DNA from: Camelus dromedarius
Taxonomy: Eukaryota
DNA: 64,000 nt
Reading direction: 5' to 3'
Assembly (NCBI RefSeq): GCF_036321535.1
Contig: NC_087436.1
Location: forward strand, 11,904,001 to 11,968,000
Within the stretch, counting starts at the first letter, position 1. Each line of letters begins with the position of its first letter. The notes under the pieces are model-generated. The model was not told the origin of the DNA. It did no database searches and saw only the letters and a program-made list of their open reading frames with translations. Below, in pieces: positions 24,041 to 58,615 of this stretch. The translations under genes were made by a program, and so were the position numbers.

Positions 24041-25035
24041 AAAATCATTGTTCTATGAAGAGGTGATCACAAATATCAGATAAAAATAGGAAAAAATATT
24101 GTAGACATGTGTTAGGTAATTAATAGAATTTTTTTTTGTATTTTTGATGTTTTTGGTGTTAACTTAAAAATTTTATGTTATAGTTTCCTTTTTTTCCCCC
24201 ACAAAAGGAAACTTGGATCAGCCTCTTGGCATTTAATAAATGCTTGTTTAAAGAAATGAGTAATGATCTACAGATTTAACAAAATACTAACCTGTATTAG
24301 TAAGAATATACTTAATATTTATACTATTATTAACACCAATACTTATACTATTATTAATACTAATACTACTTAAAGAAACCATTCTTTAAATTTTTTGAAT
24401 TCTATGCATATATCTCAATTTAATTTTTAAATTGAGGAAAGTCTTGCCACTTGCAAGGTTTCCATAAAAGGGAATAGAGAAAGTAAGAAATCATGTACTT
24501 AATTTTGCCTTTCTTTTTTTGTTGTTATTGTTCATCCCAACTCTTTTTACATATGTGAATCTAATTTAACATTCTGCAGCTGTGCTCATTTATGACTTCA
24601 TTTTAACACAAAATATTTGATAATTATATTTATTACAATGATATTTCTCGTCTTGATGTCTATCTTCTCATCTCCACAGAAGTTCACCATCAATTCAGTG
24701 ATCATGAGACATCTCTGCAATAATACTGCCTTCACATGTGTGCTCTTTCTTAAATTCAATCATTAATTCTCTTGAATATGCAATCAAGATTTTTATAGAA
24801 AAGCTACTTGAGTAGTCATTTTCCCAAGGCTTTGTTAAATTTGAAAATATCTTCCTGTTGTGCAGAGATGAATAGTAACTTGTCTATATTTAGTCAATAT
24901 GGATAATAGTTTATCCACAGAAGTTTCTGAAACTGTCTCATTGTTTTCTATTGTTACTTATTTCTGCACAAATGTAATATAATTTTGCTGTTTGAAACAT
25001 ATAGAATTTTACTTTTTAGTTAAATTCTGTATTTC

Positions 25036-25766
25036 CTTATGTGACCCTTGTCTTTGGGGTTCCTTGGATCCCCAGTTCCTCACCCTCACCCACTTCTATG
25101 GCTCTGTTGGCCCCAATTCCCTAGCCTACTGGCTCTCCCCCCCCCCACTCCCCTTCCTTTCCTACATCCCGCTTGTTCCCCATCTCATGAAGATTTACCT
25201 GCCCGAGACATCTGCTGGGGACTTGGTGACAAATCCATGCAAATCAACTTACTCTGAAACCCTCTGTTCTCTCCTTGCCCCTGATGTAACCAAAACACGA
25301 TCAATCAGGTACCTTCTAGAGACAGCACCTCCCATCGGCACTTCCCTCAAATAAGCACTGAGGACCCACAGGTTTCCAAAGCCTCCAGGTTGCCTTGCAG
25401 TGCACCTGCTGCTCAGTACCTCCAAAGACCATCTGGATCAGGTTTACGCCCCTTCAATTGCTTTTTAGTGTTCTTCTTCGGCACAGCACAGGAAACTCTC
25501 AATCTGTGAAACGAGTCCACCACAGAACAAGACCATCTCAATCTGGCAGTTAACTGCACATGGGAGTATTAGACCCAAATAAATATGTTTACAGAGAAGG
25601 TCCCTCTCATGGCCTTTCCTAAGGCACATTAGGCACCAAAGCTCTGAGATGGCCCAAAGTACGAAGGCTCGATTAATGTTTGCTTTCATCTTGTGTTTCC
25701 CAACTTATCCGGCTAGTTAAACAATCATTCTACAGAGACTGATTAATCTAAATAGAGAAAGAAAAT
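25036..25766 (+). pseudogene. EBLL: Endogenous bornavirus-like L element (EBLL): L1-mediated, 5'-truncated retrocopy of the 3' end of a bornaviral L polymerase mRNA, disrupted by stops and frameshifts
   Basis: TSD aaattctgtatttc (25022-25035) / aaattccgtatttc (25767-25780); TT/AAAT cut site; A-rich tail 25750-25765. Translation blocks DPCLWGSL...PNSLA, PIGTSLK*ALR, FQSLQVAL, GSGLRP...QETL, MGVLDPNKYVYREGPSHGLS*GTLGTKA and CLLSSCVSQLIRLV are collinear with the BoDV-1 L C-terminus as recalled from memory; terminal TGA at 25740-25742. Confidence 0.78.
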
Positions 25767-25931
25767 AAATTCCGTATTTCTTAGAACGTGCTTGATTTCA
25801 GTGCTCTTATTGCTGAATTATCTTATTATTCCTTCAGGTGTTGATTTTATCGCATTTTATCCAATTCATTTTTTTTATCCCATTCATTTTGATTTCTTTG
25901 GGAATTTCTACTATTGATAATGTGACGATGG

Positions 25932-28900
25932 TGCAGTTGAGTCTTGTATTTTTTTTTTTTAATCCATCCAGTCACCCTGTGTCTTTTGACTGGAGAATTT
26001 GATCCGTTTACTTTTAGAGTAATTATTGATCAGTAAGCACTTAGTAATGCTATCTTACTGTTTTTTTTTTTTTTTTTTTTGCCCATTTTGTAGTTCTCTT
26101 GTTCCCTTCTTCCTCTCTTGCTGCCTTCCTTTGTGAATCAATTATTTTCTGTAGTGGTATACATTGATTCCTTTTTATTTATTGTTTGCGAATCTATAAG
26201 TTATTGTTTTGTGGTTACCATGAGGCATACATAAAACAGCTTATAGATATAACAGTCTTTTTTTTACATTGATAACAATTTAACTTTAATTTAACATACA
26301 AAATCTTTACCTTTCTCCTACCCTCCTTTCATATTTTTTATTTCACAGTTCAGATCTTTTTATATTGTGTATCCATTAAAAATTATTGTTGCTATACAGC
26401 TATTTTTAATACTTTTGTCCTTTAACCTTTATACTAGAATCAATTGTTAACACCCCATCATTTTACAGTATTAGAGAACTCTGCATCTGAGTCTATGCTT
26501 GTGTTGTATATTTTCACATGTTTTTATATTATTAGGTAGTGTACTTTCATTCCAGCTTGAGTAACTTCTTTTAAAATTCTCTGTGAGGCAGGTCTAGTGG
26601 TGATGAAATCCTTTAGTTTTGCTTTTTAGGGAAAGTATTTATCACACTTTCATTTATGAAGGACAACTTTGTTGGTTCAAGTATTCTTGGTTGGCAGTTT
26701 CTCTATTTCCACACTTCAAAAATGTCATTCCTGTCTCTCCTGACCACTTCTGAGAAGTTGGCTGATAGCCTCATGGGGTTTTCCTTGCATGAGAGCTTTT
26801 TTTTTTTTTTTCTCTTGATGCTTTTAAAATTTTCTCTTTGTCTTTGATTTTAGATAGTTTTATTATAATGTGTCTTTGAGAAGATTGTAGATTGTGGATT
26901 GAAATTTGGGGTGTCTATTAGCTTTATGAATCTGGGTGTCCAAATCTATCCCCAGGTTTGGGAAATTCTCAGCCATGATTCTTTAAATAAGATTCCTGTC
27001 CTTCCTTCCTCTCTTCTCCTTCTGGGCCTCCAATGATACAAAAATTGTTTCTTCTAATGGAGCCCTATAAATCATGTAAGATTTCTTCATTCCTTTTTTT
27101 CTTTTTTGTTCCTCTTATTGGCAGGGAATAGGTTCTTGCCTTGTACAGGAAAGAATTCAAGAGCAAGGCATAGTAAAGTGAAAGCAAGTTCATTTAGAGA
27201 GATACACATCGGAAGACATAGTGGGGTCTGTCTCACTCAGAAGGGAGAGCAGCTTAGGAGATGCACACTCCATAGGAAGAATGAGGGTGATCTCAAAAGG
27301 CAAGAAGGAGTGAGATTGAGAGGTGTGGGGTATTTAGTTTAAAGTATAGGTAGATACACACTCCATAGATAGAGTGCAGGCCATCTCAGAAGGTAAGAGA
27401 GAGACTGACCATGAGGTGCAGAGTTGTTAGTTTTTAATGGGCTTGGTAATTTCATATGCTAGTGAGCAGGAGGGTTTTTCCAGCTACTTGAGGAAGTGGC
27501 ATGGATTTCTAAGAGTTGGGTCCCTGCCCACTTTTTGACCTTTGATGGTCAGTTTAGGAACTGTGATGGTGCCTGTGGGTGTGCCATCAGGCTCAAGGTC
27601 TACCAGAATCCAAATCTTCTGCCATCGTGGCTCTAACCAGTCTGCCCTGTCCTCAGTTGTTGTGTCACTCCTTCAGTGGTTGGGCCCTGCCCTCTTCCCT
27701 CCTGTCTCACTCTGATTGGATAATTTTAATTGATCTATCTTCAAGCTTCCTGTTTCTTTCTTCTGTTTGGTCGATTCTGCTATTGAAGCTCTCTATTGAA
27801 TTTTTTAGTTCAGTCCTTTGTCTCCAAAATTTCTGTTTGGTTCTTTTCTATGCTTTTATCTCTTTGTTGAACTCATTTTGTTCTCATATTTATCCCCTGA
27901 TATCATTATAGTTTTTAATCTGTTTTCTCTTGAAGCTCTCTGAGCATCTTTTGAATTCTTTTTCAGACAATTCTTGAATCTCCATTTTTTGGGGGACCAG
28001 TAACTGGAATTCACTGTATTTATTTGATGGATTATTTGTGATCCCTGTAGCTTTGCGTAGGTGTCTGCACGTTTGAAGAAGCAGTCACCTCTTCCAGACT
28101 TTATGGATTAACTTTGACAAGGGAAGGCTTTTGTCTGTGAGCAGAAGCATGCTAGAACTTACTGTGACTCTGGAATTAGTGGTGCAAGGTGTCAGGTACA
28201 AGATTGTGTGGTGGCACCAGGCCCAGGGCGTTGTGATTTCTTTTTGGCTCAGGCCAGTAGGACCCATAGCATCTACAATTGTCTGGTACTTAGTAAGTAT
28301 TTTGGGTGGGTTTGCAGTGCTTGCAAGGACTGTTGGGGTTCTCAGCAGAGCCTTAAGTTCCAGTGGGTAGGGTCCAGGGCAGGTCCAGGTTGGGGCCAGA
28401 GCAGTGGTATGCATAGATTCAGTTGTAGGGGACAGCTACAGGTACCTGTGTGGTGGCAGTCGCCAGTTACAGACACACATGTAGTGATGGGGGTCAGGGC
28501 AGGCACCAGGACCCACTAGCAGCTGCAGGAGCTCTGACGGTCAGTATGCATTACCCTGGTCATTGCGTCTTGCCACAGGAGCATGACAGTGGAGGCTGTT
28601 GACAAGGATCAGGCTGGGGGTGGCAGTGGACAGCTGGAGGTGCTGGCTACAGTGGTGCAGCCCAGTGACAAAACACAGGGCTTGGTCCAGGCCCACAATA
28701 GCTATGAGGACCCTGGCAATTAATGTGCTGTCCTGTGACCATGCAGCCTCCCCCCAGAGGTGTGCACTGGAGTGGAGAGTGGTGACAAGTATCAGGACAG
28801 TGGCATGCAAGTGCACAGCTGGAAAGTCTAACCCCTGGTTAGGCTGATGGGGATCAGCCACAGTGATCTAGGTGGTGTCTTGTACTCATGCGGCTGCAGA

Positions 28901-37884: not shown

Positions 37885-40265
37885 TGTCATTAAGATGGCA
37901 GAATAGGTCATTTCCAACCTCAGTCCCCCTCACAAGGATGCCAGCTAGCAACTATCCATGGATAAGACACCACTGTGAAAATCCCAGAACCCAGGGGTAA
38001 GGCGGAAGCACCCTCTTGGATCACAGGGACAGACAAGGACATCATTAGAAGGGTAAGAGAGGCAATTTCACTTTCGCCATATTGTCCCTCCCCGAGGCTG
38101 GCACAGCACTGCACTGACAGGGCAGCCATGGGTCTGCAGTTTCTCCAGTGGCAAAAGAGCCTGAGATGGACATTTAGTTACCTCAGCATTAGGGGATGCT
38201 TCCAGCGAGGCCCACCTGAGATAGGGATTACTCATGGGAACCACTGGGGGAGTCTATGAGGCTTGACCACTGGGGATCAAAGAGAAATGGAGCAGGGGGC
38301 CAGGGCTTACATCAACCAGCAGTCAGGTCTTGGCAGACTGAGTTCCTGCTCACAGTGGTGTCTGAGCAGAGACCCCATCCAGCAGCTTAGGCCATCTACA
38401 AAGCCAAATTGGTGATCCTGTCTGGCCAGAGAGCTCACCTGGTGGCACTGCCTGATTTGGTCCCCAACCAATGGCCATACTGGCCATGGAGCCAATTCTA
38501 GACCCCCACTTGGGCAAAGGAGCAAATTTAAAGTCACACTCAACTGCTAAACAAATTGTCCAGTCCTGCCCCTTGGAAAGTGTGGCCACAGATGATACTG
38601 AGCACCCATGGAGCACATCGTACAGCCTCCTTGATCCTGAAGACCAGCCTACAGCCCTGCTCAACTCTGGAACATAGCCTATGCTCTGCCTGATACCAGA
38701 CCGCAACCTGAGGCCCCATCCATCTGAACATGACGTGCAGCCGAAAACACCATCTGGTTGGGGAACACAGCCTGAGAACCCACCCACCCAGGAGCAACTG
38801 CAGAGCTCAGCCACAGCTCTGCCCAATCAGGGGGTCCTAGCAGGGCCACCGCCCTGCCAGGGAACACAGCCTGCAAAACCTCATCAAAGAGATGACTGCA
38901 GAGAGAAATTGAAGAATACACAAATAAATGGAAAATGTTCATGGATTGGAAGATTTAATATTGTTAAAATGTCCATACTACCCAAAGCAATCTAGATTCA
39001 ATGTAATCCCTATCAAAATTCCAATGGCATTTTTACAGAAATGGAAAAAAAAATTCTGAAATTTGTATGGAACCAAAAAGACCCCAAATAGCCAAAAGAA
39101 TCTTGAGAAAGAAGAACAAATCTGGAGGCATCCCACTTCTTGATTTCAAACTATATAGTAATCAAACAGTATGGGTACTGCCAAAAAGAAAAAAAAAAAA
39201 AAAAGCCCAAGCCAAACCAAACAAACAAAAAACAGACACATAGGCCAATGAAATAGAATAGAGAGCCAAGAAATAAATCCATGCATATATAGTCAAAAAA
39301 TGTTTGACAAGTATTCTCAATACTTAATGGGGAAAGAATAGTTTCTTTAGTAAATGATGCTGGGGAAACTAAACATGCACGTGAAAAGAATCTAAGTGGA
39401 CCTCTATCTTACACCACACACAAAAATTAGCTCAAATGGTTAAAGATTTAAATTTAAAATCTGAAACTATGAAACTCCTAAAACAAAGTTCCTTGACATT
39501 GGTCTTGCCAATTATCTTTTGGCACTTAAAGCACAAACAACAAAAGCAAAAATAAAGTGGGAGTATAGCACACTAAAAATCTTCTGTGCAGCAAAAGAAA
39601 AAAGAAAATCAACAGCGCGAAAAAGCCATAGAATGGAAGAAATAATTTGCAAACCGTATATCTCATAAGGGATTAAAATCCAAAATACATAAGGAACTCA
39701 CACAACTTAAGAGCACAAAAATAAATAATCTAATTAAAAATGGGCAGAGGACCTGAATGGACATTTTTCCAAAGAAGACATACAAAGGGCCAATGTTACA
39801 TGAAAAGGTGCTCAACATCACTAATTATCAGGGAAATTCAAGTCAAAACCACAACGAGATATCACTTATATGTGGAATGCAAAAAACAAAAACTAAAACA
39901 AAAACAAAAAGACACCAGACTTATAGAAACAGAAAATAGATTAGTGGTTACCAGGGTGGAGGTTAGGGGAAATGGTTCAAGGTGGTCACAAGGTACAAAC
40001 TTCCCGTTATAAGATGAGTCACTTCTGGCAAGGTACTGCAGAGTGGTGACCAGTTAACAATACTGTATAGTATAACTTGAAAATCGCTAAGAGAGTGGAA
40101 CATAAAATTTCTCACCACACACACACGGTAACTGAGATGATGGATGTGTTAACTAACCATATTGTGTCATCATTTCATGATATGTATGTATATCAAGTCA
40201 ACATGTTGTGTACCTTAAACCTATGCAATATTATATGTCAATTACATTTCATTAAAGCTGGGAGA
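37885..40265 (+). mobile_element. L1MA-like LINE-1 with both ends present but two large internal deletions
   Basis: Starts gtcattaagatggc; GC-rich 5' UTR to ~38900 joined to ORF2 (gaaattgaagaatacacaaataaatgg); 3' UTR ends ttatatgtcaattacatttcattaaagctgg. Confidence 0.85.
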
Positions 40266-56049: not shown

Positions 56050-57210
56050 TACACAAAAACAGATACAGATCAGTGGAACAGGGTAGAAGGTCCAGAAATA
56101 AACCATGCACTTATGGTCAATTAATCTATGAAAAAGGAGACAAGAATATACAATGGAGAAAAGACAGTCTCTTCAATAAGTGGTGCTGGGAAAACTGGAC
56201 AGCTACCTGTGAAAGAATGAAATTAGAACATTCTCTAGCACAATACACAAAAATAAACTCAAAATGGATTAAAGACTTGAATGTAAGACCAGATACTATA
56301 AAACTCCTAGAGGAAAACATAGGCAAAACACTCTCAGACATAAATCACAGCAATATATATTTTTGAACCAGCTCCTGGTGTAATGAAAATAAAAGCAAAA
56401 ATAAACCAATGGGATCTAATTAAGAGTAAAAGCCTTTGCACAGCTAAGGATACCATCAACAAAACAAAAAGACAACCTACAGAATGGGAGAAAATATCTG
56501 CAAATGATGAGACTGACAAGGGACTAATTTCCAAAATATACAAAATATAAAAAAAGAAAAACCTAATTCAAAAATGGGCAGAAGACCTAAACAAGCAATT
56601 CTCCAGTGAAGACATACAAATGGCCAATAGGCACGTGAAAAAATTCTCAGCATCACTTAATTGTCAGAGAAATGCAGATCAAAACTACAATGAGATATCA
56701 CCTCACACCAGCCAGAATGGCCATTCTGAAAAAGTCTACAAAGGATAAATGTTGGAGAGGCTGTGGAGAAAAGGGAACCTTCCTACACTTTTGGTGGGAG
56801 TATAGATTGGTACAGCCATTATGGAGGACAGTATGGAGATTCCTTAAAAAACTAAAAATAGACTTACTATGTGATCCAGCAATCTCACTCCTGAGCATAT
56901 ACCTAGAGGAAAATATAATTTAAAAAGACACATTCACCCCAATGTTCATAGCAGCAGTATTTACAATAGCCAAGACATGGAAACAACACAAATGTCTATC
57001 AACAGATGACTGGATAAAGAAGATGTGATATATACATATACACACAATAGAATACTACTGAGCCATAAAAAAGAATAAAATAATGCCATCTGCAGCAACA
57101 TGGATGGAACTGGAGATCATCATTCTAAGTGAAGTGGGTCGGAAGGAGAAAGAAAAGTATCATATGATATCACTTATATGTGGAATCTAAAAAAAAGGAC
57201 ACAGATGAAC
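56050..57210 (+). mobile_element. L1 ORF2 3' region; 5'-truncated and lacking the terminal 3' UTR
   Basis: ORFs 56073-56366 ([13 protein letters not shown]...[13 protein letters not shown]) and 56672-56923 are L1 ORF2. Confidence 0.95.
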
Positions 57211-57829
57211 TATTGTTTGTAACTTAGATGATTGATTTCTTGAATACATGTAAGCACATTTGACTGTCCTTTATGATTGGATTACCACATTCTGTTGATT
57301 CTTATTTGGTGGTTGGCTTTATTCCTTTGATAAATATGTCAGTTTAAAAAGCTAAAACTCTACACTTTTCTTAGAAACAATGATCAGTACATGTATGTAA
57401 ACTAAAAGTAAATGTGCAGTATATTGTATATATGTATTTACATGCAATATATTGTATATGTGCAGCCAAATTTTAACAATTCTATCTAAACTGAAAAATG
57501 AAAAAAAATATGAACCCTTGAACACCTAAATTACTTCAAGTTTCAAAGACAATGCTGGTGAGAGTTGATATATTTCACTACAATTCTCTTTTTCTTCTTC
57601 CTAAATCTTCACTAGAATAAAGTCTTTCAGAAAATGTAGGAATTCCTTAAACTTTGAGTTGGGGAGTGAGAGAAAGAATTGACATGGACACTGAAAGGAC
57701 AAAACACACACCCTAAGAGTTTGTTTTAGCACATATTATATATTTTAAATTTTCTAACTGTCTAAATCAGATCTGCATAACACAAATGATTTGAGAAGGT
57801 TGTTGCTAAATAAATATAAATTTAGGCTA

Positions 57830-58282
57830 CACTCATACAACTCCATAACAACAAAAAAAAAAATCCAATCAAAAAATGGGAAGACCTAAATAGACATTTC
57901 TCCAAAGAAGACATACAAATGGCCAGTAGACATATGAAAAGATGCTCAGTCTCACTAATTATCAGAGAAATGCAAATCAAAACTACAACGAGGTGTCACC
58001 TCACACAGTTCAGAATGGTTGGCATTAAAAAGTTCACAAACAATAAATGCTGAAGAGGATGTGCAGAAAAGGGAATCTTCCTACACTATTGGTGGGAATG
58101 TAATTTGGTGCAGCCACTATGAAAAACAATATGGCAATTTCTTAAAAAACTAAAAATAGAGTTAGCATATAATCCAGCAATCCTACTCCTGAATGTATAT
58201 CCAGAGAAAACTCTTTTTGAAAAAGATACATGCAACCTAAATGTCCATCGATAGATGACTGGATAAAGAAGATGTGGTATGT

Positions 58283-58323
<41 letters not shown>

Positions 58324-58615
58324 GGAATACTACTCAGTCACAAAAAAGAATGAAATAATGCCATTTGCAGCAACATACCAAAGAAGAAAGTAGTAGGGAG
58401 AGATAAATTAAGAGTTTGTGATTAACAGATATATACCACTATATGTAAAATAGATAAACAACAAGGTCCTACTGTATAGCACAGGGAACTATATTCAGTA
58501 TCTTGTAATAGCCTATAATAAAAAATATGAAAAAGAATATATATGTATAACTGAATCACTATGCTGTGCACCAGCAACTAACACAACAGTGTAAACCAAC
58601 TATCCTTCAACAAAA
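57830..58615 (+). mobile_element. L1 3' portion with internal deletions
   Basis: ORF2 tail plus 3' UTR (gtatagcacagggaactatattca); degenerate TSD aaataaatataaatttaggcta / aaataagcataattcaggcta. Confidence 0.9.

Follow-up and report, generated by a model that had tools for sequence, protein, structure and literature searches.

A probable L1-type retrocopy of host RNA from downstream of FTO at a dromedary locus first read as a viral insertion

The locus described here raises the question of which RNA served as the template for an insert of 730 nt that lies in the window, i.e., the whole stretch of 64,000 nt of the Camelus dromedarius genome that was analysed. An earlier note had taken the L1 hallmarks of this insert, together with the missing AATAAA near its 3′ end, as independent support for an EBLL (endogenous bornavirus-like L element), in which L1 would have copied a viral mRNA that ended at the last termination signal. 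Our analysis points, with a probability of roughly 0.88, to a 5′-truncated L1-type retrocopy of host RNA from the FTO-IRX interval, i.e., to a processed pseudogene. The coordinates of the relevant features are presented in Table 1.

Table 1. Features of the insert and of its surroundings in the window, and the exon-like segment near its source on contig C9.
Feature	Position	Strand	Evidence or remark
L1 endonuclease-type site TT/AAAT	25020..25025	+	one mismatch from the TT/AAAA consensus (available text of PMC5322556)
Target-site duplication, left copy	25021..25035	+	direct-repeat analysis
Two junction bases without alignment to the source	25036..25037	+	homology begins at 25038
Retrocopy body, homologous to C9:46587223-46586557 (minus strand, downstream of FTO); non-coding, neutrally diverged	25038..25744	+	E 8.5e-104
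AATAAA, common to the source; ~170 nt from the 3′ end	25578..25583	+	alignment of the two copies
GTTAAA (GTGAAA in the source); no more than a weak or decayed hexamer resembling a poly(A) signal	25716..25721	+	alignment of the two copies
Claimed viral stop and terminator; TGATT the same in the host source, next six bases (after 25744) align loosely to it	25740..25750	+	
A-rich 3′ end (decayed poly(A) tail, or partly templated by the A-rich tract of the source)	25751..25765	+	11/15 A
Target-site duplication, right copy	25766..25780	+	direct-repeat analysis
Exon-like segment matching the tail of a human FTO isoform	L019:4954-5032 = C9:46588453-46588531	minus	acceptor and donor intact

The insert is bracketed by the direct repeat TAAATTCYGTATTTC, the two copies of which are the same except for a single C/T difference in a CpG. 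The repeat is 15 nt long counting the leading T and 14 nt long when this T is assigned to the TT/AAAT site, so it falls within the ~8–30 nt of target-site duplication looked for at both ends of an L1 retrocopy, and the site itself resembles TT/AAAA. The GC content changes across the junctions from 0.27 in the left flank to 0.49 in the insert and 0.31 in the right flank. Taken by itself, the repeat goes only modestly beyond chance: the window has about 20 separate places with pairs of 15-mers that differ by no more than one mismatch and are spaced by 300–1500 nt (counted with overlaps, 180 pairs, or 116 once low-complexity sequence is filtered out), and a 13/14 match was found in 6 of 3000 random pairs of 40-nt windows spaced 750 nt apart. 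It is convincing as a target-site duplication because both copies lie at the ends of an independently defined block of homology (25038–25744) and at the GC step. The 14-bp repeat with its single mismatch and the tt/aaat cleavage site reported in the earlier note are present, the TGA (25740–25742), AATAAA and GTTAAA stand where it had placed them, and its proposal of L1-mediated retrotransposition is supported by the repeats, the site and the ends of the homology block.

An empty site was also sought among repeat paralogues. The left flank of the insert has no relative in the genome, and the L1 matches of the right flank begin at ~25950 or slightly earlier, past the junction, so that no empty site was found among these paralogues. 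The region from 25950–26600 onward, ~170 nt to the right of the insert, is a high-copy repeat with 2290 candidates, and the 40 of them that were scored share 70–76% identity. We take this repeat to be L1-like.

The search of the genome with the insert returned two candidates, both of which were scored, namely the insert itself and a single segment of contig C9. When 1.7 kb around the C9 copy served as the query in turn, the matches were the same insert block and four short ones to a simple-repeat tract. The two copies are identical at 514 of 662 aligned bases, and the homology begins 2 nt after the left repeat and ends past the stop codon claimed in the earlier note. The host source continues upstream of the insert, and measured against it the claimed 5′ truncation holds. 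Of the 32 direct-repeat families around the C9 copy, the 20 largest were compared, and none of them is a close repeat that brackets this copy; its GC content matches that of the flanks (0.44/0.50/0.48). The genome thus holds a host parent locus without repeats or tail, as looked for in L1 retrocopies. As the C9 copy has neither a bracketing repeat nor a GC contrast, we infer that the copy in the window is the derived one and that copying proceeded from C9 to the window.

The Kimura distance between the copies is 0.27, or 0.25 without CpG sites. In the two longest blocks, the mismatches are spread evenly over the codon positions (11/58, 11/58 and 9/58, p 0.85; 11/46, 9/47 and 7/47, p 0.54), and whichever frame of either strand is read, more of the differences are non-synonymous than synonymous. 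The divergence is neutral and the insert is non-coding; the even mismatches and the non-synonymous excess also disfavour two integrations from diverging viral genes. The neutral rate is near 2e-9 per site per year, and the halved distance divided by this rate would place the retrocopy, very roughly, at 50–70 million years. It most likely does nothing.

With stops read as X, no Pfam family was found in the six frames of the insert or in the six frames over 3.7 kb of the C9 locus, and a set of ten ORFs gave one irrelevant weak match to Pfam (YrhC, E 0.18). The three forward frames searched against the PDB with E up to 10 matched no viral chain, the BoDV-1 L models being possibly outside the copy searched; matches to collagen IV and dehydroquinate synthase were rejected as chance. 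Full-length models of BoDV-1 L are deposited as 9H1G, 9H1Q and 9H1Y, according to the available text of PMC12350838. Frames 1 and 2 were also compared with a large protein collection, in which none of the 726 long candidates for frame 1 and none of the 553 for frame 2 scored; this is weak evidence. Frame 1 searched against 1.84 billion representatives gave one match, an unnamed 155-aa singleton (P0001), which aligns to both copies with changes of frame. Its predicted fold lacks confidence (pLDDT 0.28), and it has no Atlas match of at least 0.9. The singleton is most plausibly a reading frame that arose by chance in a third copy of this DNA, from another sample; judging from its translation, this third copy appears to keep two 17-nt segments that are absent from the C9 copy.

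The surroundings of the source place it behind FTO; a SINE resemblance in the C9 loci suits a camelid host. On the minus strand of C9, three exons match the Pfam family FTO_CTD, and the last of them (46614854–46614997) translates to the FTO C-terminus; the exons of this C-terminal domain at 46.81 and 46.61 Mb lie on the same strand as the source, and the middle FTO_CTD exon has 97 relatives, of which the named ones are nearly all FTO. The source starts 27.6 kb downstream of the last FTO coding exon, on the FTO strand. Beyond it, KN-type homeoboxes are found at 46.50, 45.99 and 45.71 Mb of C9, the nearest of them 85 kb further on; from their order after FTO we take them to be IRX3, IRX5 and IRX6. 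The AATAAA signals of the main 3′ UTR of FTO lie ~0.7–2.2 kb after the stop.

The interval that contains the source is reached by FTO transcripts in other mammals. Fifty-three non-standard C-terminal tails, taken from 113 listed members of the FTO cluster, were mapped against 30 kb around the source; two of them map strongly, and none of the 53 reversed tails used as a control did. The tail of a human FTO isoform (P0184, UniRef A0A1B0GVH5) matches at 23 of 26 residues (E 2e-19) in an exon that ends AG/GTAATT, ~1.2 kb before the start of the source copy, and the tail of a chinchilla isoform (P0113) maps to a place 9 kb upstream of the source, where 19 of 23 residues match. The mapping of these two tails identifies the interval as host DNA with conservation in human and rodent, into which FTO transcripts are annotated to splice. 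For the source segment itself, a matching FTO isoform tail was sought among the alternative tails of the 97 representatives and among the 53 tails of the 113 listed members, and none was found. A long pyrimidine tract ending in CAG, which looks like a strong splice acceptor (C9:46587317), lies 94 nt upstream of the start of homology and 1135 nt after the human-type exon. The insert spans no splice junction and starts 94 nt inside this candidate exon. In three RNA-labelled sequencing runs, all from one reproductive-tract study, 0.27–0.51 of the words of the C9 stretch were present, which is weak evidence and could reflect DNA; five runs with a word share below 0.2 were left out of the evidence.

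Some further details of these exons were recorded. The exon-like segment that matches the human tail sits in an AT-rich block resembling a conserved non-coding element. A GT is present in this genome (L033:6854 region) where the human and chinchilla isoforms leave the last FTO coding exon. At its start, the candidate exon (L019:3818-3785, minus strand) has a short frame that runs into three TGA codons in a row. A direct splice from the exon before the last FTO coding exon to the source acceptor, by which the protein would gain a short new C-terminus that stops at these in-frame codons, was considered and rejected, as it has no matching isoform.

In the mechanism proposed here, L1 ORF2p would have nicked the AT-rich TT/AAAT site in the germ line, and reverse transcription of a host RNA would have been primed at its A-rich 3′ end (target-primed, in trans). 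Copying would have stopped after ~730 nt, which would leave a 5′-truncated copy between target-site repeats of 14–15 nt, and this copy would then have decayed neutrally. The template RNA would come from the stretch beyond the last FTO coding exon, on the FTO strand. There are about even odds that it was the downstream terminal exon of a minor FTO transcript; an unspliced read-through is rather unlikely, and a separate non-coding RNA is unlikelier still. Tentatively, the insert may be regarded as the fossil cDNA of a minor germline FTO transcript that ran from an internal donor in the last coding exon to the downstream exon shared with human and on to the copied segment. If this is true, the alternative 3′ end of FTO would be dated to tens of millions of years, and the insert would show where in the FTO-IRX3 regulatory interval this transcript was once polyadenylated.

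The 3′ end of the insert had been called virus-style in the earlier note, an interpretation that did not stand. Its statement that neither AATAAA nor ATTAAA lies 10–35 nt before the tail is borne out when the copies are aligned, as a canonical poly(A) hexamer is absent from this range before the break in both of them; the AATAAA further upstream is too far away to be the signal for this end. At ~22% divergence, the absence of AATAAA is not diagnostic. The TGA and the following TT are no evidence of a viral stop or terminator because both are present in the host source. The earlier note had also suggested a comparison with bornaviral termination signals. According to the available text of PMC5834213, the predicted termination consensus of python bornavirus is UAA[A/G]AAA. 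This python-bornavirus consensus is absent from 25735–25770, and TAA[A/G]AAA occurs 81 times elsewhere in the window; the motif discriminates little.

The A-rich end that had been described as a decayed A-tail is present; it may be an untemplated tail or partly templated, and its last nine bases match exactly a tract of the source ~45 nt past the break, near C9:46586500. Such a match is seen in ~1–3% of random windows of 60 nt: an exact run of nine bases turned up in 27 of 2994 and in 76 of 6394 controls, and 63 of 2994 and 216 of 6394 reached an equal alignment score. A true poly(A) tail, added after cleavage at a weak or since-decayed signal, has a slightly better than even chance. Internal priming at the genomic A-rich tract followed by a short deletion falls a little short of even odds, and the templated reading requires that ~30 nt were later deleted. 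Internal priming at A-rich stretches is reported for L1 retropseudogenes in the available text of PMC5322556.

The same match of the last nine bases would also suit copying without a true tail, for example the DNA-level copying of the source into a staggered break, and an orphan 3′ transduction from an L1 that once lay upstream of the C9 site would be expected to leave the same repeats and tail with no need for a host gene. Both routes are nevertheless very improbable. When the window, which contains several L1 pieces, was compared with 30 kb around the source by blastn, six short repeat matches of 64–77% identity were found besides the insert, and those nearest on the upstream side lie at a distance of ~10 kb and do not exceed 0.6 kb in length; moreover, the FTO transcripts of other mammals demonstrably reach the source interval.

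A slightly smaller chance is left to the C9 segment being itself a very old insertion that became part of downstream FTO transcripts, whether a rare repeat or a viral element changed beyond recognition, with the window copy as its retrocopy or sister insertion. The lack of a bracketing repeat among the families compared, the lack of a GC contrast, the lack of a family match in six frames and the presence of only two copies in the genome all speak against it, although very old elements do lose their repeats and their protein similarity. The two 17-nt segments that the third copy seems to retain would fit such a history, but the protein predicted from this copy has neither a confident fold nor a close Atlas match.

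The EBLL reading is largely refuted and is the least probable of all: a target-site repeat with an A-rich end is reported near several EBLs (available text of PMC6115245), the canonical AATAAA is missing near the end, and bornavirus G sequences did enter this lineage, but the insert has a host source that also supplies its TGA and the next bases, lacks TAA[A/G]AAA at its end, shows no codon-structured divergence between the copies and has no viral protein match, the sole hit of its frame 1 among the representatives being the frame-shifting singleton. In the available text of PMC6115245, an EBLL is defined by a tBLASTn E below 1e-20 to bornaviral L; here, no similarity to bornaviral L was found in Pfam, in the PDB or, for frames 1 and 2, in the large collections. 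A genome search with the Mononeg_RNA_pol profile, run as a stricter first look, returned nothing and carries little weight; this profile presumably does not cover the L C-terminus. The control search with the BDV_G profile found broken bornavirus-like G sequence at C14:53.63 Mb and C9:68.73 Mb, which means that bornavirus elements are detectable in this genome and are located elsewhere. The claim of a viral mRNA template was thus not upheld. The earlier note had named a canonical poly(A) signal together with a host parent gene as evidence that would tell against it; the host source was found and the canonical signal was not.

Compared with known systems, the insert is closest to the 5′-truncated processed pseudogenes, retrocopies of mRNA or non-coding RNA mobilised by L1 in trans, described in the available text of PMC2912911. 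It shares with them a target-site duplication of the usual length, the L1 endonuclease-type site, the 5′ truncation, the A-rich 3′ end, the single host source and the neutral decay, but unlike them it has no coding sequence and no exon junction, and its source is an unannotated downstream segment rather than the main 3′ UTR of FTO. The tailless or internally primed retropseudogenes (PMC5322556, available text) resemble it in the possibly source-templated 3′ end and the lack of a canonical poly(A) signal; those are mostly small structured RNAs, whereas the templated end of the insert needs a deletion of ~30 nt. EBLLs, as far as the consulted text of PMC4865735, PMC6115245 and 10.1101/2020.12.02.408005 describes them, have the same integration footprints, but the insert has no similarity to the bornaviral L protein and has a host source, so that it is like an integrated EBL only in the L1 route. 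The bornavirus survey reports few endogenisations in most laurasiatherian lineages, and camels are absent from its main text (10.1101/2020.12.02.408005). No published description of this retrocopy was found in the FTO and EBLL literature, the locus tables of the survey preprint lying outside this scope.

The insert is of an ordinary kind and a further example of a processed pseudogene. A viral template cannot be deduced from L1 footprints and the lack of an AATAAA; such calls are settled by searching the host genome. The retrocopy would be a record that DNA far beyond the end of FTO, in a region that matters for work on FTO-IRX3 regulation, was once transcribed in the germ line, and the insertion could be used as a presence/absence marker if other lineages share it.

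Other bornavirus-like matches were recorded in the same genome. On the minus strand of C14 (53631821–53633153), there are three BDV_G (PF06208) matches above the cut-off with internal stops, i.e., a broken bornavirus-like G element, which is probably the laurasiatherian EBLG of PMC5834213, judging from the available text of that paper. The match on the minus strand of C9 (68729576–68729746) covers positions 417–473 of the BDV_G profile (E 1.9e-9) and contains two TGA codons; it could be a separate short EBLG. Three matches to BDV_P40 below the cut-off (E 0.15–0.77), at C9:72302407–72302652, C2:103913283–103913483 and C8:27691541–27691642, may be due to chance.

The window is gene-poor and repeat-rich. 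Over its 64,000 nt no tRNA gene was found, and one stop-to-stop frame of at least 150 codons is present (38350–38826, minus strand). At 56600–58400, there are two similar stretches, ~1.25–1.3 kb apart, with runs of shared 15-mers, which we take to be L1-like.
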